NCBI GenBank assembly: GCA_018060845.1
Contig: JAGOVG010000001.1
Coordinates: 15,222-79,221 of the forward strand
DNA: 64,000 bases
Source of the DNA: Candidatus Woesebacteria bacterium
GTDB lineage: Bacteria; Patescibacteriota; Microgenomatia; UBA1400; UBA12108
Reading direction: 5' to 3'
Positions within the stretch are counted from its first letter, which is position 1; every line of letters starts with the position of its first letter. A program made the position numbers and the translations under genes. Under the pieces are notes generated by a model. It was not told the DNA's origin and did no database searches. It saw only the letters and a list, made by a program, of their open reading frames with translations. Of this stretch, positions 10,231 through 48,170 are shown piece after piece.

Positions 10231-10497
10231 TTAATAAACCTGGTTGTGAGTGCCTACATCATAAAAAATTAAGATCCCGTCCTTTTCACCATATACGACT
10301 CTGTAATCTCCTGTAATACTAAATGCTCTCTTGCCAATTTTTGTGCCTGTTAACGCGTGATCTCGAATCAGAGGATCTTTAGGATTAGTTTGGAAAAGCT
10401 TGAGACGCTCGGCAAATTTTTTGGATAGACTAGAGCTTGGCAAGATTCTTTTCTTGAAGGATTTCTCAAAATATTTAGAAAATTTAATTTTCTTCAT
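10231..10497 (-). CDS. Type II toxin of the RelE/ParE superfamily, YafQ-like mRNA interferase
   Basis: C-terminus RDHALTGTKIGKRAFSITGDYRVVYGEKDGILIFYDVGTHNQVY matches the YafQ/RelE core (H.L.G....R..H.....L.Y......L...GTH). Confidence 0.78.
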   Translation of the reverse strand: MKKIKFSKYFEKSFKKRILPSSSLSKKFAERLKLFQTNPKDPLIRDHALTGTKIGKRAFSITGDYRVVYGEKDGILIFYDVGTHNQVY

Positions 10498-10840
10498 ACC
10501 CCAATTGCTTCATAAGATCGTCCACACCGGTTGCTGATTTAAAATTTTTACCTTTGGCTAAATCCTGATCCATCTTGTTATAACGATTAATTGCATCTTT
10601 GGAGAGTTTAACGGTGGATGGCTCAGAGTAGACATCGACACGTAGCGTGCCAGAGGAGAAGCGATGCATAATGACCCTCATCGCCTCTTGCAGACTAGAG
10701 AATCCCTGACTTAGCGCCATTTGGTGGGCGCTATCTCTTAGATCTGTGCTTACCGGTATTTGAACAACTGTTCTACTCATATGCATACAATTGTAATGTT
10801 TTGGTATGCGGTTGTCAATATATCGAGAGTTATCCTGCAC
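10484..10840 (-). CDS. RelB/DinJ-type antitoxin (ribbon-helix-helix), partner of the YafQ-like toxin
   Basis: Its stop overlaps the toxin start by 14 nt. RHH-like segment SRTVVQIPVSTDLRDSAHQMALSQGFSSLQEAMRVIMHRF. The true start is probably the internal MHMSRT at about 10786. Confidence 0.62.
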   Translation of the reverse strand: MQDNSRYIDNRIPKHYNCMHMSRTVVQIPVSTDLRDSAHQMALSQGFSSLQEAMRVIMHRFSSGTLRVDVYSEPSTVKLSKDAINRYNKMDQDLAKGKNFKSATGVDDLMKQLGYEEN

Positions 10841-10949: not shown

Positions 10950-11309
10950 TTAATTTTTCCTTGGCAAAAGTGGAGAATTTTTCTTTAATCTTGTTGGAAT
11001 TTTGTTAACCATAGGAGCAATTATATGAAAAACCTCAATTTGACCTTGATCTAACCCATGTTTAATAGTAGAAAGAGCATCATTTAGCCCTGAAAGATAT
11101 TCTCTCGCTGCTACTAATGTGATACTCGATAAAGCGTAAATCGTTTCTTTTGGAAGTTCTTGCAGGAGCATTACTGCAACTGTTGCCCTGTGTTGCATAG
11201 AGATTTCGTGAGGATTAAGGCCTAATGTAAGTGATACTTCTTTTTCAAAGAGAGCACTCCCCAACACTTCCTCTTCGCTAGCGTGAACTTCTCCACCGAT
11301 AATTTTCAT
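10950..11309 (-). CDS. Hypothetical protein, possibly the detached DHHA1-like C-terminal part of the upstream DHH-like gene
   Basis: Starts 8 nt after the stop of the DHH-like ORF. An N-terminal GGEVHAS stretch weakly recalls the DHHA1 GGGH motif. Weak call. Confidence 0.35.
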   Translation of the reverse strand: MKIIGGEVHASEEEVLGSALFEKEVSLTLGLNPHEISMQHRATVAVMLLQELPKETIYALSSITLVAAREYLSGLNDALSTIKHGLDQGQIEVFHIIAPMVNKIPTRLKKNSPLLPRKN

Positions 11310-11317
11310 ACTCGTCT

Positions 11318-12214
11318 TTAGTTATTGTTTTGTTTACTCTTATAGATCTTTGGCTTGAGCCAATCAGCCTGTGGTTCAGCAACTGGCTGCCCCACTTCGC
11401 TTACAGCTTCGGTTGGGGTCTTCGCTTCGCTTCGAGTGTCAATATCTATAATGGGCATGTCAGCGACAATCTTGGCCTGCTGAGGAACGATGGTCTTAAC
11501 CTGGCGACGAGCGCCGGTTCGATAGAGAACGGCCAAGGCTTCGAAAGTATCTGCCGTCATGTTGGGACTACCAAGATTATCAGTACCTGCTTCGATGCCG
11601 ATCATGAGGTTGTTGGCGATATCGACGTCCATGGGGAGAGCTAGCTCTTTGAGGAGTGCTGTAACTAACTCGCTATTACTACTAGATGGGTCTGCGATAT
11701 TGATGGCACCAAAGCTACTAACCTGGTTGCTAACGTTGGCGATAGTTGATTTGCTAAAGAGCTCGATTTCTTTTTCGGCTAGACTACCCACATCTTTCAA
11801 ATCAGCTGCACCAATCACGATTATGAGATCAGCAACAGCGCCAGAATAGCCAAAGACAATATCTTTTTCGGTGACTGGCTCGGCACCTTCTCTCGGATTA
11901 ATGATGAGGTTAAGATGGCCTCCTTCGGTATTACTGGTAACTTTGTCGACCCTATCTTCGGGAACATTTAAGGTTATTACTAGGTTGTTACCACCGAGGT
12001 CTGTACTCACTTTATCAAGCCCTACTAGGTGTGAGTCGCGGACGGTTACAGGGTTACTGGCAACAACGGCGACTTTTTTGCCACTAGTTTTGAGTGAGAG
12101 GTAAAAAGCGAGAGCAGCGGCGATACTATCTTGATTGGGGTTAGCCGCAAAAGTAATGAGAACTGAGTTAACCTCTTGGATTTTGGCTTTGAGAGCGTTT
12201 AGTTGATCTTGCAT
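11318..12214 (-). CDS. DHH-superfamily-like protein (NrnA-like fold) with a degenerate catalytic motif
   Basis: Layout resembles NrnA/DHH phosphoesterases, but the motif reads ITFAANPNQDSIAAALA instead of HxxPDGDA and no DHH triad is seen. It may be an inactive paralog. Confidence 0.5.
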   Translation of the reverse strand: MQDQLNALKAKIQEVNSVLITFAANPNQDSIAAALAFYLSLKTSGKKVAVVASNPVTVRDSHLVGLDKVSTDLGGNNLVITLNVPEDRVDKVTSNTEGGHLNLIINPREGAEPVTEKDIVFGYSGAVADLIIVIGAADLKDVGSLAEKEIELFSKSTIANVSNQVSSFGAINIADPSSSNSELVTALLKELALPMDVDIANNLMIGIEAGTDNLGSPNMTADTFEALAVLYRTGARRQVKTIVPQQAKIVADMPIIDIDTRSEAKTPTEAVSEVGQPVAEPQADWLKPKIYKSKQNNN

Positions 12215-12232: not shown

Positions 12233-13660
12233 CTAATCTTCAGTCTTAATTTTCTTATAGGCTATTATAACGTCCTTTTCTCGGATGTCAAGATTGGGGG
12301 AGAAGAGGATGCCACACTCTTTGCCTGCTTCGATTTCTTTGAGTTCGGTCTTGCCAGTTCGGATATTTTTGATCCTGGCTTCTTTATTTACATCAGTGCC
12401 CCTTTTAATGTGGACAGTATCACCCACACTGATTTTGCCTGAGTCTACGCGGGTCCCACCAATGTGGTCTCCATTAATATCAAATACCTTGATTATTACC
12501 CCTGATCCTAGCTGATCTTCGTCGATTGTGGGCTCCATGAGGCGGAGGATCTTTTTCTCGATATATTCTAGGAGTTCGTAGATGATTTTGTAAGATTTGA
12601 TCACTACCCCCTCAAGCTCGGCGAGTTTGGCGACGCTAGTGGGGATGCGGACTGCAAAAGCGAGGATGAGTGAGCCGGTGGTGCGAGCTAGTAGTATATC
12701 GCTCTCAGACACGTCACCAGTACCTGCCTCGATTACGTGGATCTCGTCGGTAAAACTACCTCGGAGGGCCTCGAGTGAGCCGAGTGAGTCGGCGCGGACA
12801 ATAAGCTTTAGTCTATTGACTGGCATAACCGCAGCATCGGCTGCTCCTGCAGCCTGAGCAGCCTCTGGATCAGCTACTACAGCTTGAGAAGTTATAATCT
12901 CGCCAACTTTTGGAGCCGTGTTAAAACCTAAGAGCTGAACTGGGGTACCAGGTGTAGCGACCGGGATCTGAACACCCGCATAGCTGATGATCGAGCGGAT
13001 TTTGGTAGCAACCTCACCCACATAGACGGTATCGCTAGTTTTTAGAGTGCCCTCTTTGACGATTGCGGAGACTAGGACCCCCCTCTTCATATCTAGTTTG
13101 GACTCGATAATTGGGGCAACTAAGGGTGATTTTTCGTCATTTTTGAGCTCCTCGAGTTCGGAGAGGAGGAGGATGGTCTCGAGCAGCTGATCTACACCGG
13201 CTCCGGTCTTACCTGAGATTAGAACAAAAGGAGTATTACCACCGTAGCCCTCGACAAAGACTTGATGCTCAGTGAGCTGAGCCTTTGGTAATTCTGGGTT
13301 GGCCTGGGGTTTGTCGGTTTTGTTGATTGCAACTACAAATGGGATGCCGGCTGCTTGGATGTATTTAATACTCTCGGCTGTCTGCGGCATGACCCCGTCG
13401 TCGGCGGCGACCACCAACACTGCAATATCTGCAACATTTGCACCCCGAGAGCGCATCTTGGCAAAAGCGGCGTGGCCGGGAGTGTCGATAAAGGTTAGGA
13501 GATTGTCTTTAAAACTAGCCTGGTAGGCACCAATGCTCTGGGTAATACCCCCTGCTTCTTTGGCGGCTACGTGACTGCTCCTGATGTAGTCGAGTAGTGT
13601 GGTTTTGCCATGATCAACGTGGCCGAGGATTGCTACGATTGGAGGGCGTGTATTAGTCAT
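12233..13660 (-). CDS. infB: Translation initiation factor IF-2, minimal form (G domain to C2 only)
   Basis: Starts straight at the G domain ([14 protein letters not shown]; DTPGH; NKTD). It is 475 aa with no N-terminal domains. Confidence 0.9.
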
Positions 13661-13666
13661 AATTGA

Positions 13667-13695
13667 GGGGCGGACACAGGGGTCCGCCCTTACAT
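13667..13695. repeat. GC-rich palindromic element, copy 1 (GGGGCGGAC-acagg-GGTCCGCCC), between nusA and infB
   Basis: Perfect 9-bp stem. A near-identical 27 nt recur at 41585-41611 inside the pcrA coding sequence. Confidence 0.6.
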
Positions 13696-13704
13696 GAGTT
13701 GTTA

Positions 13705-14940
13705 TTATCTATTTTCGGCGTCGCGTTCGGCGGCAAAACGTGCGGCTTTTTCGGCTTCTTCACGAGCCATGTCGGCTTTTTTGTAGAAGCGAGCGATAGC
13801 TTTGCCAGTTTCGACGTAGGCGCGTGGGTCTAGCTCTTCGATGGTTGCTTTGAGTGACTCTAGCTTTTCCTCGAGTTCTTTGACTGTTGTAATCTTGAGA
13901 TCTAGCAAGGTGTTTCTGACTTTGCTGCCTAGCCCTAGTCTATCGATCTCAAACTCTTCTTCGCCAGTTACTGAGTGCACACCACTATCTGTTACACCCT
14001 TGATGTCGACTTTGAAACCAAGGAGCTTGGCGGCAAGGCGAGCATTTTGGCCACCGCGGCCGATTGCGAGACTGAGCTGATCGTCGGGGACGGTCACTGT
14101 GACTTTGCGTTTGCTCTCGTCAATATTTACTTCGAAGCCTTCGGCTGGAGCTAGGGCGGCTTTGACGTATTCGACTAGGTTGGTGCTGTACTCGACGATG
14201 TCGATCTTTTCACCATTTAGTTCGTTGATAACAGCCTGGACACGGATACCTTTTTGGCCGACGCATGAACCGACTGGGTCGATACCATCTTCGGTGCTTT
14301 TGACACTGATTTTGGTGCGGTGTCCGGCTTCGCGGGCAATTGCGACGATCTCCACACTACCGGCACCTACCTCTGGAACTTCGCGGGCAAAGAGTTCTTT
14401 GACGAGCTCTGGAGCTGCGCGACTAACAATGATGGTTTTGCCTTTGTAGGTGTCTCTGATTTCTTTGATGTAGACGGCGACGCGTTGGTTGAGGCGGTAG
14501 AACTCGTTAGGAATAGCCTCGGCCTGTGGCATCATAGCCTGGCCACGACCTATATCGATCACCACATTAGGACCATCAAAGCGCAGGATCATGCCTGTGA
14601 CTAAGGTACCTAGTTTGTCGCTATAGTCGGCGATGATTGCGTCTTTCTCGGCTTCTCTGACTCTTTGCATGATGACCTGTTTGGCGACCTGGGCGGCAAT
14701 ACGACCAAAACCAGCGGGGGTAGCGTCCTTGCCATCTTTGGTGACGGCTATTGCACCAGTTTCTTCGTTGACAGTGACCACGTATCCGACTAGTTCCTCT
14801 TCTTCGGCGATGTTTAGATCACGTTTGAGAGCTGCGAGGATAGCGGTCTTGATAGCGTCGATTACCATCTTGGGGTCGATGCCACGCTCGGAACAGATCT
14901 GGTTAAGGGCGAGCATAAATTCTGATTTAACTTGAGTCAT
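13705..14940 (-). CDS. nusA: Transcription termination/antitermination factor NusA
   Basis: N-terminal domain, S1, and two KH domains (GxxG: IGRGGQNARLAAKLLG). Conserved nusA-infB order. Confidence 0.93.
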   Translation of the reverse strand: MTQVKSEFMLALNQICSERGIDPKMVIDAIKTAILAALKRDLNIAEEEELVGYVVTVNEETGAIAVTKDGKDATPAGFGRIAAQVAKQVIMQRVREAEKDAIIADYSDKLGTLVTGMILRFDGPNVVIDIGRGQAMMPQAEAIPNEFYRLNQRVAVYIKEIRDTYKGKTIIVSRAAPELVKELFAREVPEVGAGSVEIVAIAREAGHRTKISVKSTEDGIDPVGSCVGQKGIRVQAVINELNGEKIDIVEYSTNLVEYVKAALAPAEGFEVNIDESKRKVTVTVPDDQLSLAIGRGGQNARLAAKLLGFKVDIKGVTDSGVHSVTGEEEFEIDRLGLGSKVRNTLLDLKITTVKELEEKLESLKATIEELDPRAYVETGKAIARFYKKADMAREEAEKAARFAAERDAENR

Positions 14941-26534: not shown

Positions 26535-27062
26535 CTATCTCCATGTCCTCTCGACGTGAACTGACCTATTTTCGTCGACCCAATTACTGAATTTGTTTAC
26601 ATTAGCTTGAAAACTGTCAGAAATATTTACTTTAAGAGCGCTGAGAATTGTTAATAAACCGATTAGTAGTCCGTTTTTCTCAACTATTTTCATGGCTTCT
26701 ATTGAAGGATTGATCATTACTTTTTTATAGTATTTTGCGTTCCTGTATAAAGGTCGTATCGATCTATGTGAAGTGGTTAAAATGCAACCTATCAACCTCT
26801 GGTCACTAGATTCCACCACTAGCGAAGTCGGGTGACCAAACTCATGAGGTTTCTGTATTACTTTACAAATAGTTGTAGGGAATAGGCTGTCGCCAACTCT
26901 AGCGAGTGCAAACTTTGTTATTGGAAGCTGACCTGAATCTAGGAGCATTGAAAAATAGTCAAAAAAGAACCCTTCGCCTTCTCTACAAGCAGGGTCAGAA
27001 AATGGTCTAGATCTCCACTCTTTCGGGATAATTGATAAATCAAATTTATCTTCCTTGGTCAT
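26535..27062 (-). CDS. Hypothetical protein
   Basis: ORF with ATGA overlap to lepA. No motif recognised. Confidence 0.4.
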   Translation of the reverse strand: MTKEDKFDLSIIPKEWRSRPFSDPACREGEGFFFDYFSMLLDSGQLPITKFALARVGDSLFPTTICKVIQKPHEFGHPTSLVVESSDQRLIGCILTTSHRSIRPLYRNAKYYKKVMINPSIEAMKIVEKNGLLIGLLTILSALKVNISDSFQANVNKFSNWVDENRSVHVERTWR

Positions 27063-28927
27063 ATCTTCAATACTTCAGTAAAGGCGCTCTGCGGAACCTC
27101 GACACGGCCGAGCATTTTCATTTTCTTTTTACCCCGCTTTTGTTTGTCGAGGAGTTTTTTGTTACGTGATACATCACCACCGTGCAGTTTGGCTTCGACA
27201 TCTTTGCGATACGCCCTGATTGTGGCGCGGGCGATAATTTTGCCACCAATTGCTGCCTGGATTGCAATCTCGATCTGGGCTCTGGGGATTACTTCTTTGA
27301 GTTTATCTACTAGTACCCTACCGCGAGCCTCTGCCTGATGACGTGGGGCGATAAAACTGAGCGCTTCGGCAGGCTCAGTATTTAAGAGAATGTCGACTTT
27401 GACAACATCAATCGGCTGATACCCTGCGTGTTCATAACTAACGCTCGCGTATCCAGAACTAACCGACTTGAGGCGGTCATAAAAGTTGGTTATCAGCTCG
27501 GCGAGAGGCATGAGATAGCTCAACCTGACGCGAGAGCTCACGTACTGCATATCGATAAACTCGGCTCTTTTGTTCTGGGTCAGCTCCATGATGCCACCCA
27601 CGTACTGTTCGGGAGTGTAGATAGTCATCTCAACCACTGGTTCCTCGACACTACTGACTAGCTCGGGTCTCGGCCAGTCGGAAGGAGAAGATATTTCAGT
27701 TTTTTCGCCATTATTGAGAGTCATGTGGTAAGGGACAGATGGACTGGTATTAACTACGGAGACCTCAAACTCTCGGGAGAGGCGCTCTGTCACGATCTCG
27801 GCATGGAGGATACCCAAGAACCCGACACGAAAGCCGTGACCAAGGGCGGGAGAGCTAGCGGCGTGATAAGTGAGCGCGGAATCGGATAGAGTTAGTTTGC
27901 CCATGGCATCGACAAAGTCGCGATAGTCGTCGGCATCGATCGGGTAGAGATCCATAAAGACCATAGGTTGTGGTTTTTGATAGCCAGGGACTGGGGTAAT
28001 TTTCGAACCAAAGGTAGTGACGGTGTCACCGATTGTAATCGCCTTAATATCTTTGTGGCCGGTTGCAATAAAACCTACCTCCCCTGCCTTAATTGTTGTG
28101 GCTGATGTCATGAGCGGGGCAAAGTAGCCGATGTCGAGGGGTGAAAACTTTTCTTGGGTCGCATAGAGATAGAGATTGTCTCTATTTCTCTTATTAATCT
28201 CGCCCTCTAAGACTTTGACAAAAGCGATTACGCCCTTGTGGCTGTCAAAAGTACTGTTAAAGATGAAAGCACGCAGATTGGAAACTGGTAAACCTGCCTG
28301 CGCAGGCAGGTCCGTGGAACCGTTAATCCGTGAAGCCGTTTTTGGCGCAGGAATTTTGTGTACTATTTCCTCAAGCAGCGCTGGAACACCCTCGCCACTT
28401 TTGGCTGAGACTCTAAGAATTTCTTCTTTTTTGAAACCTAGGTTATCGATTAGCTCGGCCTCGACCCGATCTGGCTCGGCGGCGGGCATATCAATCTTAT
28501 TAAGCACTGGGATTATGGTCAGCCCTGCAGCTTTGGCTTTGTCGTAGTTGGCTAGGGTTTGCGCCTGGATACCCTTGGTTGCGTCGACCACGAGCACGGC
28601 GCCTTCGCAGGCATAGAGAGCGCGACTTACTTCGTAACTAAAATCAACGTGACCGGGAGTATCTATCAAATTTAACTGGTAAGTTAAATTTGAATTCTCA
28701 AATCCCAAATTCTCAAATTGCTCAAGTTTAGAAGTGTAGTTCATGCGGACGGGCGCGAGCTTGATGGTGATCCCCCGCTCGATCTCGATCGGATTACTAT
28801 CCATGAGCCGAGCTGAACCCCCCATGGCGACAGTCCCGGTCTCCTCGAGCAATCGATCAGTCAAGGTAGTTTTGCCATGATCGATGTGAGCGATGATGCA
28901 AAAATTGCGAATATGAGTGGTGTTCAT
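27059..28927 (-). CDS. lepA: Elongation factor 4 (LepA)
   Basis: IIAHIDHGKTTLTDRLL, DTPGHVDF and the LepA C-terminal domain. The ORF extends to 29023 and would overlap murJ; the likely true start is MNTTHIRNF at about 28927. Confidence 0.9.
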   Translation of the reverse strand: MNTTHIRNFCIIAHIDHGKTTLTDRLLEETGTVAMGGSARLMDSNPIEIERGITIKLAPVRMNYTSKLEQFENLGFENSNLTYQLNLIDTPGHVDFSYEVSRALYACEGAVLVVDATKGIQAQTLANYDKAKAAGLTIIPVLNKIDMPAAEPDRVEAELIDNLGFKKEEILRVSAKSGEGVPALLEEIVHKIPAPKTASRINGSTDLPAQAGLPVSNLRAFIFNSTFDSHKGVIAFVKVLEGEINKRNRDNLYLYATQEKFSPLDIGYFAPLMTSATTIKAGEVGFIATGHKDIKAITIGDTVTTFGSKITPVPGYQKPQPMVFMDLYPIDADDYRDFVDAMGKLTLSDSALTYHAASSPALGHGFRVGFLGILHAEIVTERLSREFEVSVVNTSPSVPYHMTLNNGEKTEISSPSDWPRPELVSSVEEPVVEMTIYTPEQYVGGIMELTQNKRAEFIDMQYVSSRVRLSYLMPLAELITNFYDRLKSVSSGYASVSYEHAGYQPIDVVKVDILLNTEPAEALSFIAPRHQAEARGRVLVDKLKEVIPRAQIEIAIQAAIGGKIIARATIRAYRKDVEAKLHGGDVSRNKKLLDKQKRGKKKMKMLGRVEVPQSAFTEVLKI

Positions 28928-28955
28928 GGAAACTATTATACGGGATAGATCAGGG

Positions 28956-30608
28956 TTATACCGAGCTATCGTCAGAATCGAGGGTTTCTTTGCTCTGTGA
29001 TAGTGCTTTGTGCCAGTTGCCAATTTTTTCCACTAGCGCGACAAAGACTGTTAGCTCGCGGATTTTGAGGAAGTACGAGAGCGTGATGTAGACACCGATC
29101 CCAATTAGACCAACAGAGAGAGTCAGCATAATAAGAGGTAGCGTGCGGGTAGTGTCAAAGACCATTCTGTCTAGTACGCGCAGAGGCACCCAGAGGGCAA
29201 AGCCAGTGATAACGGTCGAGAGGAGGATTTTGCTGAGTGGGACAAGAAGATCCCGGAGGGAAAACTTGGCGTAGCCATAGAGGATCGCGGTTAAGACAAT
29301 GGTTTCGAGAATGCTCGCGACGGTGATCGCAAACGCCATCCCCAGGATCCCGGCCTGAGCCACAAAGAGAAAATAATAACTAACGCTCACATTAATAATA
29401 GTAGAGAGGAGGTTGGCGATTAGTGGCACTGTGGTGTTGTGGAGCGCGTAAAAAACCCGGACCAAAACGTGGGTGAGTGACCGTGCGGCAATGCTTAAGG
29501 CTAGGATCGCTACTAGCTTGCCAGTTAGGACAGTCTCGGCCCAGGGAAAAGAGTCGGCACCATACGCGAGTCTAACTAGCGGGATGCGCAAAACCAAGAC
29601 TATTGCAGACAAAGGAAGTGCCAAATAGAGCATCTCGAGGATCGTGTGATTGACCATAGTCGAGAGCTCCCCGCGCTCGCGGCTGCTCGCGTTTTTGGCA
29701 AAGAACGGGAGAGAGGCCTGGCCGATCGGCACGCCAATTAGCCGGACTGGCATGGCAGAGAGCTGCTGTGCGATCGCCATTAGGGTGACTGTGCCAGTGC
29801 TGAGCCAGGACGAAAAGGTAACAATAATCGTAGCCTCAATCTGAGTGAGAGAGAGCGTTAGGACCCGCGGACCCATGAGCCGCATCATCTCGGCTACTGC
29901 GGGGGATTTTGGCGAGATAGTTGGGGTATAGCGAAACCCTAGCTGGTGAGCAAGTGGGAGCTGAGCTAGTAGATGTAGTACTGCGCCTAGGACGACACCA
30001 ACTGCGGGGCCGTAGATACCAATGGTCGGACCGAGTACGATAATACCAATGATGATGCCGAGGTTATAAAGTATGGGAGAGAGCGCGGGGATCAAAAAGC
30101 GCTGGTTGGACTGGATGATGCCAGTTAAGAATGAGGAAAAGCCAAAAAAGAGCTGGGCTGCAGCCATGATGCGTGTCAGGTTGGCCATGAGGTCAAGTTG
30201 AGAACTCTCAAATCCCCCAGCGATCACACCACTGAGCGGGCGTGCATAGATTAAGAGGAGGATAGTGAGAACCAGCATGACTAGCATAATCGCATTGATC
30301 ATGGAGCTAGCAAGCCTACTACTCTCACTCTTATTACCTAGATATTTAGAAAATACTGGGATAAAGGCAGATGAGAGTGCGCCCACGATGATGATCTGAA
30401 AAACCATGTCGGGCAGCCTAAAGGCAGCCCAAAAAACATCGAGAACAGCGGTGTCGTTGTAAAAGTAAGTGATTAATAGCCTGGTACGAATTAGTCCGAG
30501 GACAGCGGAAGCTAAAGAGGCCCCCATGATCACTGTGGCTGCCGAGAGGATTGAGCTGTTTTCTTTGACAAAGAGCGACCGGCCATTATTAATTAATCGT
30601 TTGAACAT
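28956..30608 (-). CDS. murJ: Lipid II flippase MurJ (MviN)
   Basis: About 14 TM helices; typical MurJ N-terminus. Confidence 0.82.
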   Translation of the reverse strand: MFKRLINNGRSLFVKENSSILSAATVIMGASLASAVLGLIRTRLLITYFYNDTAVLDVFWAAFRLPDMVFQIIIVGALSSAFIPVFSKYLGNKSESSRLASSMINAIMLVMLVLTILLLIYARPLSGVIAGGFESSQLDLMANLTRIMAAAQLFFGFSSFLTGIIQSNQRFLIPALSPILYNLGIIIGIIVLGPTIGIYGPAVGVVLGAVLHLLAQLPLAHQLGFRYTPTISPKSPAVAEMMRLMGPRVLTLSLTQIEATIIVTFSSWLSTGTVTLMAIAQQLSAMPVRLIGVPIGQASLPFFAKNASSRERGELSTMVNHTILEMLYLALPLSAIVLVLRIPLVRLAYGADSFPWAETVLTGKLVAILALSIAARSLTHVLVRVFYALHNTTVPLIANLLSTIINVSVSYYFLFVAQAGILGMAFAITVASILETIVLTAILYGYAKFSLRDLLVPLSKILLSTVITGFALWVPLRVLDRMVFDTTRTLPLIMLTLSVGLIGIGVYITLSYFLKIRELTVFVALVEKIGNWHKALSQSKETLDSDDSSV

Positions 30609-40561: not shown

Positions 40562-42568
40562 TTGTACCTTATGCATACCTACCTAGACGAGCTAAACAAA
40601 GAGCAGAGGCGAGCGGCCGAGCATCTAGGTACGCCACTACTCATCCTGGCTGGGGCGGGGAGCGGCAAAACTAAGACACTCACCTACAAGGCGGCACACC
40701 TCATGCACTCTGGTATTGTGACCCCAGAGCAGCTACTACTCGTTACTTTTACAAATAAGGCAGCTGGAGAGATGAAGGAGCGGGTCAAAAAAGTAGCTGG
40801 AACATACCTACCAAATGTCGGGACTTACCACTCATTGTCTGCTCGAATACTACGAAGGCACGGTGACGCACTAGGGATTGGTCATGACTTTGTGATCTAC
40901 GATGACGGCGACCAAGAGGACTTGGTTAAGCAGATCCAGGGTGAGTTATCGCAGGACCCCAAGAGATTTAAGTCACGTAGCATCATGAGTATGATCAGCT
41001 CGGCCAAACAAGAAATGGTAAACCCAGAAAATTATCGAAGTATGGCTCGTGGACCTTTTCAAGAAGCGGCGGCTGCAGTTTACTCTAAGTATCAAAAATA
41101 CTTAAGGGACTATACGGCGGTAGATTTTGATGACCTACTATCACTAACCGTTGAGCTACTGCAGAAACATGAGCACGTAAGAGATAACTACCAGAACCTG
41201 TTTAAAGCAGTGTTTGTGGACGAGTATCAGGACACCAATACCACACAATACCTGTTAACTAAGCTCCTCGCAGCCAAGGCTGAGCTGACAGTGGTTGGGG
41301 ATGCGTCGCAGTCGATCTATAGATGGCGTGGGGCAGACTATCGTAATATGACCAAGCTAAAGTCGGACTTCCCTACTCTCACCGAGATTAGACTAGAGCG
41401 TAACTATAGGAGCACCCAAAATATCTTAGATGCGGCAACAACGGTCATTGGCCATAACAAAAACCATCCCATCCTGTCGCTCTGGACCGAAGCTGGGGCG
41501 GGCGAGCCAATAGGACTTATCGAAGCGTATTCGGGTAGCGACGAGGCGAGCCGGATCGTTGAACTAATACTGAATATGGTCAACGGGCGGACGCAGGGGT
41601 CCGCCCCTACAAGATGGAATGATATCGCTTTACTTTACCGCACCAACGCACAGAGCCGAGCGATCGAAGAAGCGATGATTAGGAGCAGTGTCCCGTATAC
41701 CTTGGTTGGGGGGACAAAGTTCTATGAGCGCAAAGAAATAAAAGATTTACTTGCATACCTACGAATCCTCTTAAACCCTGCTGACAAAGTTAGCTATACC
41801 AGAGCCGAAAAAGTGGGTAAGAGGAGACTGGCCATGCTCATGGCAATCAGCGAAACTATTGATGTAGCTAAGACTCGGCCTAGTGATCTGCTTGAAAAAG
41901 TAATAGAGACAACCAAATATTTGGACCAGTACGACGAGGATGACCCGGAGGAGCTATCGAGAATTGAGAATATCCGGGAGCTGCAGGTGGTAGCTGAAGA
42001 GTTTGAAGACCTGCCAGCGCTCCTAGAGAATGTGTCCCTTGTACAATCAGAGTACTTTGCCGGAGAAAAGGGCAAAGACAAAGCTAACTCAGTGACCCTC
42101 ATGACGCTGCATGCAGCTAAGGGACTAGAGTTCCCGATCGTGTTTTTGATAGGAATGGAAGAAGGACTGTTCCCCCACTCCCGAGCGCTCATGGATCTAG
42201 AGGAGATGGAAGAGGAGCGGAGACTCGCCTATGTAGGTATCACGCGTGCCAAAGAAAAACTATATATTTCATATGCCAAACAGAGGACAGTCTGGGGTAA
42301 TACTGGTTTTCAAACTAAGTCGAGATTTATTGATGAGATCCCCGCCAACTTGATTCAGAATGTCGGACAACCAGAAAACTCAGAGGGTCGGAAAGTCGGA
42401 GAACCAGTTAACCAGATAAAGAGTAAAAGTGAGAAGGATTTTTGGGTATCGCATGGAGCGCAGTTTAAGACAAAAAAATCCGGCGTCCGGATAGACAGTC
42501 TTAATGACTCGACACTAGATGATTTTCTATCGGGTAATTTGAGTATTGATGAACTGCTGAATCGTTGA
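40562..42568 (+). CDS. pcrA: UvrD/PcrA-family SF1 DNA helicase
   Basis: LNKEQRRAA...AGAGSGKTKTL (motif I), VDEYQDTN, TLHAAKGLEF, VGITRAK. Confidence 0.9.
   Translation: MYLMHTYLDELNKEQRRAAEHLGTPLLILAGAGSGKTKTLTYKAAHLMHSGIVTPEQLLLVTFTNKAAGEMKERVKKVAGTYLPNVGTYHSLSARILRRHGDALGIGHDFVIYDDGDQEDLVKQIQGELSQDPKRFKSRSIMSMISSAKQEMVNPENYRSMARGPFQEAAAAVYSKYQKYLRDYTAVDFDDLLSLTVELLQKHEHVRDNYQNLFKAVFVDEYQDTNTTQYLLTKLLAAKAELTVVGDASQSIYRWRGADYRNMTKLKSDFPTLTEIRLERNYRSTQNILDAATTVIGHNKNHPILSLWTEAGAGEPIGLIEAYSGSDEASRIVELILNMVNGRTQGSAPTRWNDIALLYRTNAQSRAIEEAMIRSSVPYTLVGGTKFYERKEIKDLLAYLRILLNPADKVSYTRAEKVGKRRLAMLMAISETIDVAKTRPSDLLEKVIETTKYLDQYDEDDPEELSRIENIRELQVVAEEFEDLPALLENVSLVQSEYFAGEKGKDKANSVTLMTLHAAKGLEFPIVFLIGMEEGLFPHSRALMDLEEMEEERRLAYVGITRAKEKLYISYAKQRTVWGNTGFQTKSRFIDEIPANLIQNVGQPENSEGRKVGEPVNQIKSKSEKDFWVSHGAQFKTKKSGVRIDSLNDSTLDDFLSGNLSIDELLNR
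41585..41611. repeat. GC-rich palindromic element, copy 2, embedded in-frame inside the pcrA coding sequence
   Basis: GGGCGGACgCAGGGGTCCGCCCcTACA. It encodes the NGRTQGSAPTRWN segment just before the conserved LLYRTNAQ motif. Confidence 0.6.
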
Positions 42569-48050: not shown

Positions 48051-48133
48051 ATATCTCAGAAATAAAAAGGGTGGTAATATCTAGCTTTACAATGTTTGGC
48101 CATAGGTTTAGGAATTGCATATGTGTTTACCAA

Positions 48134-48161
48134 CCCCCTCCCTACAATCGCAGGGAGGGGG
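48134..48161. promoter_or_regulatory. Very stable GC hairpin (10-bp stem CCCCCTCCCT/AGGGAGGGGG) at the left edge of the AT-rich island
   Basis: Lies between convergent genes. No adjoining U-tract on either strand. Confidence 0.4.
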
Positions 48162-48170
48162 TGTTAGGCC

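Follow-up and report, generated by a model that had tools for sequence, protein, structure and literature searches.

Two copies of a GC-rich hairpin in a Woesebacteria genome, one between nusA and infB and one in-frame inside pcrA, have the architecture of GTAG-type REPs

The 64-kb stretch of Candidatus Woesebacteria DNA analyzed here (the window) contains two copies of a short hairpin, one in the spacer between nusA and infB and one in-frame inside pcrA. On the sequence evidence, both are very probably solitary GTAG-tagged canonical REPs of the Y1/HUH RAYT/TnpAREP type, closest to subclass 2.4, and lineage-specific gains. Read on the reverse strand, the element consists of GTAG, an 8-bp stem with a GGG foot and a 6-nt loop, which is canonical REP architecture; a GTAG tetranucleotide abutting a GC-rich hairpin is the defining feature of GTAG-class REPs (PMC2817692, PMC3733652, PMC6006769). 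A search of the window allowing up to three mismatches returned exactly two matches to GGGCGGAC-RCAGGG-GTCCGCCC with a (C/T)TAC tail, and 100 dinucleotide-preserving shuffles of the window returned none, so that no match is expected by chance. The core of copy 1 (13668-13689, GGGCGGACACAGGGGTCCGCCC, R = A) is followed by TTACA and that of copy 2 (41585-41606, GGGCGGACGCAGGGGTCCGCCC, R = G) by CTACA, the common tail being (C/T)TAC(A). Each core spans 22 nt, with 8-bp arms and a 6-nt loop, and is a hairpin, not a palindrome of perfect symmetry. The preliminary description of this DNA had reported a 27-nt palindrome in both places; the repeat is real, occurs twice in the 64 kb and lies where it was placed, in the nusA-infB spacer and in-frame in pcrA, but the palindrome proper is 22 nt long and imperfect.

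Together with its tag, the intergenic copy 1 occupies 13668..13693 on the − strand as GTAA-GGGCGGAC-CCCTGT-GTCCGCCC, and the intragenic copy 2 occupies 41585..41610, also on the − strand, as GTAG-GGGCGGAC-CCCTGC-GTCCGCCC. The GT[AG]G tag at the hairpin foot is thus GTAG in the pcrA copy and a degenerate GTAA, with one mismatch, in the nusA-infB copy; a scan of the window for GTAG plus a hairpin returned the pcrA copy only. Both copies are singletons, not REPIN/BIME doublets. The GTAG strand is the window − strand in both, and this equal chromosomal orientation fits strand-specific insertion but, with n = 2, proves nothing. Relative to transcription the two copies are oppositely oriented, and copy 2 is translated. 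The GGG...CCC foot is present in both copies and matches the description of subclass 2.4 REPs: TnpAREP proteins of this subclass go with canonical REPs that have three G-C pairs at the foot, and with REPs located in-frame in tnpAREP between HuH and Y, an arrangement unique to the subclass (Quentin 2018, PMC6006769). Elsewhere in the window, at 48133-48162, there is a hairpin with 11-nt perfect arms (ACCCCCTCCCT-acaatcgc-AGGGAGGGGGT), on the margin of an AT-rich region that may be a foreign island (GC 0.37-0.40 over ~48-56 kb, compared with 0.45-0.49 in most of the window).

The host gene of copy 2, pcrA (40562..42568, + strand), encodes a UvrD-family helicase with Pfam UvrD-helicase and UvrD_C domains. 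The NCBI PcrA protein has 665 aa, which implies that translation begins 9 nt into the ORF, and the window PcrA is 100% identical to that of another Candidatus Woesebacteria assembly (P0001; GCA_020049755.1, JAHZTO010000034.1). On the + (sense) strand copy 2 is read in-frame as GRTQGSAPT within ..LNMVN-GRTQGSAPT-RWND.. Alignment with PDB entries places the loop that contains copy 2 directly before motif IV, with the strand and motif ..ALLYRTNAQSR / FAVLYRTNAQSR coming next, and in a structure alignment the loop is 5 aa longer than that of G. stearothermophilus PcrA. Through the element this surface loop gains a flexible segment rich in Gly, Ser, Thr and Pro. An alignment of pcrA orthologs, the check named in the preliminary description, finds the REP loop absent in all 15 of the nearest PcrA homologs (P0002-P0016, 93-71% identical), which read ..L(K/M)(Y/H/L)R(N/D/S)(E/G)G(R/K)(N/E)W(S).. 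where the window protein has ..LNMVNGRTQGSAPTRWN.. The case of coincidence considered there, in which there are two copies only and the pcrA segment is conserved, is not what we observe, the loop being missing from the relatives. The nearest orthologs carry ..KYRNEG(R/K)NWSD.. at the loop, making the window allele net 18 nt longer. DNA identity to the nearest empty alleles is no more than 81-83%, and the loop's flanks differ as well (NMVN vs KYRNEG), so that no clean insertion junction or target site can be defined.

REPs are recurrent at this loop in Microgenomates. A REP-encoded segment is located at exactly the same place in 34 of 119 Microgenomates PcrA homologs, or 12 of 73 after dereplication at 90% identity, and the REP+ alleles are scattered in a neighbor-joining tree, each sister to an empty allele. 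The alignment of these homologs contains no GTAG-type insert elsewhere in PcrA. The embedded REPs include at least five different stems, all in one frame and one orientation and each followed by CTAC. Their arms are GGGCGGAC / GTCCGCCC in the window and in L122, GGGCAG / CTGCCC in L129, GGATCGAC / GTCGACCC in L130, GGGCAGAT / ATCTGTCC in L252, GGGCAGAC / GTCCTCCC in the decayed copy of L128, and GGGAGGAC / GTCCGCCC in L253. When seven embedded copies chosen by position, not by pairing, were aligned, 91% of cells were paired, compared with 36-59% in slid controls; three stem pairs have changed on both sides, and the observed covariation was reached by 3-5 of 500 shuffles. We infer at least three separate REP acquisitions at this loop. 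Strong purifying selection that tolerates only this loop and this benign frame, REP-for-REP replacement at an already occupied site, or a real target preference could each account for its recurrent occupation.

Recombination appears to contribute in part of this group. In a Collierbacteria-like clade most REP+ alleles are mutual nearest neighbors in the flanking ±40 aa (91-96% identical) while their nearest neighbors over the whole protein are empty alleles, a pattern that suggests spread of a REP-bearing pcrA haplotype by recombination within the clade. The window copy could in the same way have been imported by homologous recombination, as a short gene-conversion tract from another Microgenomates REP+ allele, or have replaced an older REP. 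Such an import would agree with the shared codon position, frame and orientation of REP+ PcrA alleles across many lineages, and with the immediate flanks GTN-(G/A)NN...CTACA that the window has in common with the Collierbacteria-like REP+ alleles. However, the local nearest neighbors of the window allele, as of P0023, are empty alleles, and for the window allele the nearest neighbors are the empty alleles P0005, P0007 and P0008, locally as well as globally. Moreover, sliding-window DNA identity to the REP+ allele L122 rises over the element only, with no tract beyond it; the 45 nt downstream are 82% identical to the empty allele L121 and 80% identical to L122. Import into pcrA also leaves the second copy, in the nusA-infB spacer, unexplained, and we regard it as quite unlikely. 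In the preferred reading, that of a REP gained in this lineage, the pcrA copy would persist because its frame, G-R-T-Q-G-S-A-P-T, is benign in a surface loop that tolerates extra residues. In-frame REPs of the GTAG and CGTC types are listed in UvrD/Rep helicases, UvrABC, RecBCD and DNA polymerases, and REP inserts in genes have been argued to survive in loops or linkers (Di Nocera 2013, PMC3733652).

Copy 1 lies between nusA (13705..14940, − strand; Pfam NusA_N and NusA-like KH domains), which is upstream and transcribed in the same direction, and infB (12233..13660, − strand), which is downstream and encodes a short IF2 of 475 aa with Pfam GTP_EFTU and IF-2 domains. The spacer measures 44 nt, from the nusA stop at 13705-13707 (−) to the infB ATG at 13660-13658 (−). 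Copy 1 begins 11 nt past the nusA stop, its first stem base is 15 nt past the stop, and 7 nt separate the end of its stem from the infB ATG. The corresponding spacers of three relatives (L125, L126 and L127, with IF2 93, 89 and 85% identical, respectively) are 27-33 nt long and contain no hairpin, and a TAACAACT(A/C) motif located 5′ of the REP in the window is present in two of the three. Read by eye, neither the spacer of the window nor those of the three relatives has an obvious Shine-Dalgarno sequence, in which case the insertion of copy 1 destroyed none. Since each copy is absent from the orthologous sites of the closest relatives, both can be read as lineage-specific insertions, and on these alignments the lineage of this Woesebacteria genome evidently gained both after its split from the closest sampled relatives.

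RNA folding of 81-nt segments predicts the 8-bp hairpin in the RNA of either strand, at −18 to −25 kcal/mol; the segment from the nusA-infB mRNA strand folds at about −18 kcal/mol and has no U-tract. Copy 1 would be co-transcribed as a stable intercistronic hairpin that may at most modulate mRNA stability or infB initiation. A function selected by the host, as an RNA regulatory or processing hairpin, a nusA-infB attenuator, or a DNA signal for recombination or uptake, could be suggested by this predicted stability in either orientation, by the location 7 nt upstream of the infB start codon, from which initiation could be affected, and by the roles in mRNA stabilization and termination with which REPs are credited in the literature (PMC3733652). 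We consider such a function very unlikely. The two copies are opposite relative to transcription and one of them is translated, the orthologous spacers lack the hairpin and so do not point to a conserved regulator, and the same sequence recurs in unrelated contexts in dozens of phyla. DNA uptake signals recur at about one short oriented motif per kb, and two copies in 64 kb are far too sparse for one, which argues against the uptake signal raised in the preliminary description. Its further proposal, a structured RNA or other functional signal, fares no better: Rfam at gathering thresholds gave no match in the whole window, Rfam at E ≤ 10 around copy 1 gave two chance-level matches only, and a scan around copy 1 found no terminator or promoter at the site. 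An intrinsic terminator is rejected because the hairpin is followed on the mRNA (−) strand by CUCAAUUAUG, with no U-tract, and because that scan was negative.

Two further features were noted in this region. The IF2 protein (12233-13660, −) starts directly at the G domain, without an N-terminal extension, and the IF2 proteins of all close relatives are of like length (471-490 aa). Between rpsO and the nusA-infB cluster, 10231-10840 (−) of the window contains a pair of short ORFs that overlap (88 and 118 aa); the smaller protein, ending in ...GDYRVVYGEKDGILIFYDVGTHNQVY, looks like a RelE/YafQ-type toxin, and the upstream 118-aa ORF may be its antitoxin.

The element is widespread. In a scan with one genome per species the exact 22-mer was present in at least 119 genome stretches from more than 20 phylum-level groups, the 119 stretches listed containing 124 copies. 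Among the 80 rows that carry titles are Planctomycetota, Glassbacteria, Chloroflexota, Acidobacteriota, several classes of proteobacteria, Campylobacterota, Nitrospirota, Elusimicrobia and CPR groups. CTAC follows about 100 of the 124 listed copies; otherwise the flanks are unrelated and nothing else is conserved outside the hairpin. Inverted doublets are frequent among the matches listed and many copies lie at contig ends. For example, at least 25 contigs of the Planctomycetota MAG JACRIP01 carry the 22-mer, many as gtagggg...//...cccctac doublets. The 119 listed loci also contain 64 distinct GTAG + 8/6/8 hairpins with differing, mutually complementary stems (such as GGGCAGAC/GTCTGCCC, GGGCGCAC/GTGCGCCC, GGACAGGC/GCCTGTCC and GGGTCGAC/GTCGACCC), whereas eight control tetranucleotides gave 0-8. 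Some five stem positions vary within the fixed scaffold GTAGGG...AC-CCCYGT-GT...CCC, so that the same stem can recur in many genomes and its recurrence is partly expected. A BIME-like cluster of the same superfamily is located downstream of ribF in the complete genome of Vescimonas fastidiosa, a cultured isolate, which shows that the REP family is not a MAG artifact.

A chance likeness of two GC-rich hairpins, or an assembly or sequencing artifact of MAGs, has a negligible probability: although all 80 titled rows (of 119 listed) are MAGs and contig ends hold many of the copies, genuine repeats produce just such an enrichment, none of the 100 shuffles contained a match, the carriers differ in assembler and platform and include Mb-scale contigs and a complete chromosome, related variants are present in the complete genome of the cultured isolate, and the pcrA copy is in-frame with diverged homologous copies in related lineages.

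To estimate how often the element is intragenic, we restricted the count to listed loci with GC < 0.52, since stop-to-stop ORFs are uninformative in GC-rich loci. Among the matches listed, an open frame of at least 150 codons spans 12 of 32 such copies, of which, from translations read by eye, about four lie convincingly inside a real gene (a polyprenyl synthase, a RAYT, a membrane glycosyltransferase-like protein and a prepilin peptidase). The exact 22-mer is present in one of 2.9 million viral contigs, and phages are thus no obvious vector. That contig, L124 (IMGVR_UViG_3300032069_000866), has two copies in the same orientation, 45 nt apart, at 11286-11352. A full-text literature search for the sequence gave unrelated primer matches only.

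The 22-mer is also linked to genes for candidate cognate enzymes. Y1_Tnp/RAYT-like genes contain the identical 22-mer or lie within a few hundred nucleotides of it at L032, L094, L008, L083 and L060, that is, at 5 of the 119 listed loci, compared with a rough estimate of ~0.3 expected if the two were unlinked. The encoded proteins score above the cut-off of Pfam Y1_Tnp (PF01797), and the NCBIfam model that matches them best is NF047646, "REP-associated tyrosine transposase", with E values of 1e-16 to 4e-19 that fall below the equivalog cut-off. In L032, a Woesebacteria MAG, the 22-mer is in-frame in the gene, between the HUH motif and the catalytic-tyrosine region (...VMPNHVHVIIII-GRTQGSAPT-LGTII...RNYYEH...), where it follows MPNHVH (...MPNHVHVIIII-GRTQGSAPT-LG...). 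L094 has the 22-mer at the same place in another reading frame (GGHRGPPL). The RAYTs beside the 22-mer in other genomes are only 33-43% identical to the Woesebacteria RAYT of L032. When the L032 ORF adjoining the 22-mer was used as the tblastn query (E ≤ 1e-3), no RAYT homolog was found in the 64-kb window.

By analogy with characterized TnpAREP enzymes, the strand that carries 5′-GTAG and the hairpin would fold when single-stranded, a RAYT would bind the folded strand and cleave at a CT located 5′ or 3′ of the hairpin, and the cleaved REP strand would be joined into another single-stranded site. For this REP class, mobilization by a RAYT is presumed from the systems of E. coli, Stenotrophomonas and Marinomonas (PMC8266576). 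In TnpAREP cleavage and strand transfer, changes at the third or fourth GTAG position abolish cleavage (PMC8266576). Given the effect of such mutations elsewhere, the nusA-infB copy, its tag decayed to GTAA, is probably inert and no longer cleavable. The pcrA copy could still be a RAYT substrate, with its GTAG and a CT one base upstream on that strand.

Several known types of short repeat resemble the element to different degrees. REPs are small mobile DNA hairpins present in many bacteria; those of GTAG type are 20-40 nt long, GC-rich and imperfectly palindromic, compensatory changes preserve the stem-loop within a family, the copies are numerous and scattered through a genome, often paired in inverse orientation (REPIN/BIME), and a RAYT/TnpAREP gene accompanies them (REPtron). 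MITEs have terminal inverted repeats around an internal sequence, create target-site duplications and measure ~50-500 bp. The MITE label of the preliminary description has been dropped, as the conserved unit here is 26 nt, without terminal inverted repeats, its flanks are unrelated among the 124 listed copies and no duplication is visible. Its companion suggestion, a REP-like mini-insertion that tolerates in-frame insertion, agrees with the REP architecture, with the multi-copy and RAYT-linked occurrence in other genomes and with the absence from the relatives' sites. As in the GTAG REPs (PMC2817692, PMC3733652; subclass 2.4, PMC6006769), GTAG stands at the foot of a GC-rich hairpin with a GGG/CCC foot, in a unit of 26 nt; in other genomes there are multiple copies of the element, with inverted doublets, and it adjoins a Y1/HUH gene or is located in-frame inside one. 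Unlike the published GTAG REPs, it has here a reduced-genome CPR host, two solitary copies and no RAYT in the window, and one GTAA tag. Rickettsia palindromic elements are likewise in-frame palindromes in genes, including those for DNA replication and repair, that add short peptides without destroying the protein (PMC3733652); however, RPE-1 elements are longer palindromic insertions restricted to Rickettsia, and RPE-4 and RPE-6, although short, are of CGTC and not GTAG type and lack an associated transposase (PMC3733652). The IS200/IS605 TnpA proteins (Y1 HUH, "peel and paste") belong to the same family as the cognate enzyme, PF01797, and recognize a folded single-stranded hairpin with a 5′ guide tetranucleotide, but a REP consists of a single hairpin: it lacks a transposon body and does not have left and right ends that form a pair.

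The extra loop of an essential helicase and the intercistronic hairpin are, on this reading, both footprints left by selfish DNA of a single known kind, and neither should therefore carry the annotation of regulatory RNA, intein remnant or functional motif specific to the lineage. The feature itself is of an ordinary, already-explained kind, with a few modestly interesting comparative details. It extends GTAG REPs to CPR/Microgenomates, whose genomes are small and usually deemed repeat-poor; no description of REPs in CPR was found in the literature searched, nor, in the same literature, the recurrent REP occupation of one PcrA loop or a 22-nt REP core shared unchanged by many phyla and accompanied by RAYTs only 33-43% identical to the Woesebacteria one. 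In the literature, a REP family is described as specific to one host lineage and its own tnpAREP; the exact 22-mer, by contrast, recurs here across many phyla. TnpAREP is regarded as a domesticated, single-copy gene. An identical core across more than 20 phylum-level groups, next to RAYTs so diverged, would imply either spread of the hairpin between phyla or an unusually rigid protein-DNA recognition code. Both this core and the repeated occupation of the PcrA loop bear on how REPs choose or retain sites.

It is tempting to view the loop before PcrA motif IV as a genuine REP hot spot of Microgenomates and, separately, one 22-nt core as recurring across phyla, but we hold this fuller reading to be unlikely. 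A hot spot could arise by targeted insertion or REP-for-REP replacement at a habitually single-stranded site. HUH enzymes recruit PcrA/UvrD helicases, and a functional link of HUH tyrosine transposases with these helicases could be involved. The alternative to a hot spot is mere insertion tolerance of the loop.

Other short palindromes and inserts were observed. In the pcrA of L253 (L253:201-2258, JGI contig Ga0376277_0000019) a nested 18-nt palindrome, CCTGCCTGCGCAGGCAGG, unrelated to the REP, is located between the REP loop and the 3′ arm (GGGAGGAC-ACAGGG-CCTGCCTGCGCAGGCAGG-GTCCGCCC-CTAC), and both elements are in-frame (VDGRTQG-LPAQAG-SAPT). In the window an unrelated perfect 20-nt palindrome, ACCTGCCTGCGCAGGCAGGT, at 28292-28311 lies in-frame in lepA (ORF 27059-29023, −), where it encodes LPAQAG in LepA/EF4; the peptide LPAQAG is also a lineage-specific insert in the PcrA homologs P0007 and P0036. 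The exact lepA 20-mer has matches in at least 120 stretches of JGI metagenomes, where its flanks are unrelated and carry no GTAG/CTAC tag; it resembles a further family of mobile palindromes, very short and inserted in-frame. Finally, the PcrA homologs P0095, P0103, P0106, P0092 and P0008 contain further lineage-specific inserts in the C-terminal part of the protein, HPPSLWRASDG, PPSRWGASDGRG, LLRSGELRTGKT, SPNASLPAGRQGSEL and TTLRSSEL, which look like products of additional GC-rich repeat families, and short peptides encoded by repeats seem to be a widespread decoration of Microgenomates proteins.
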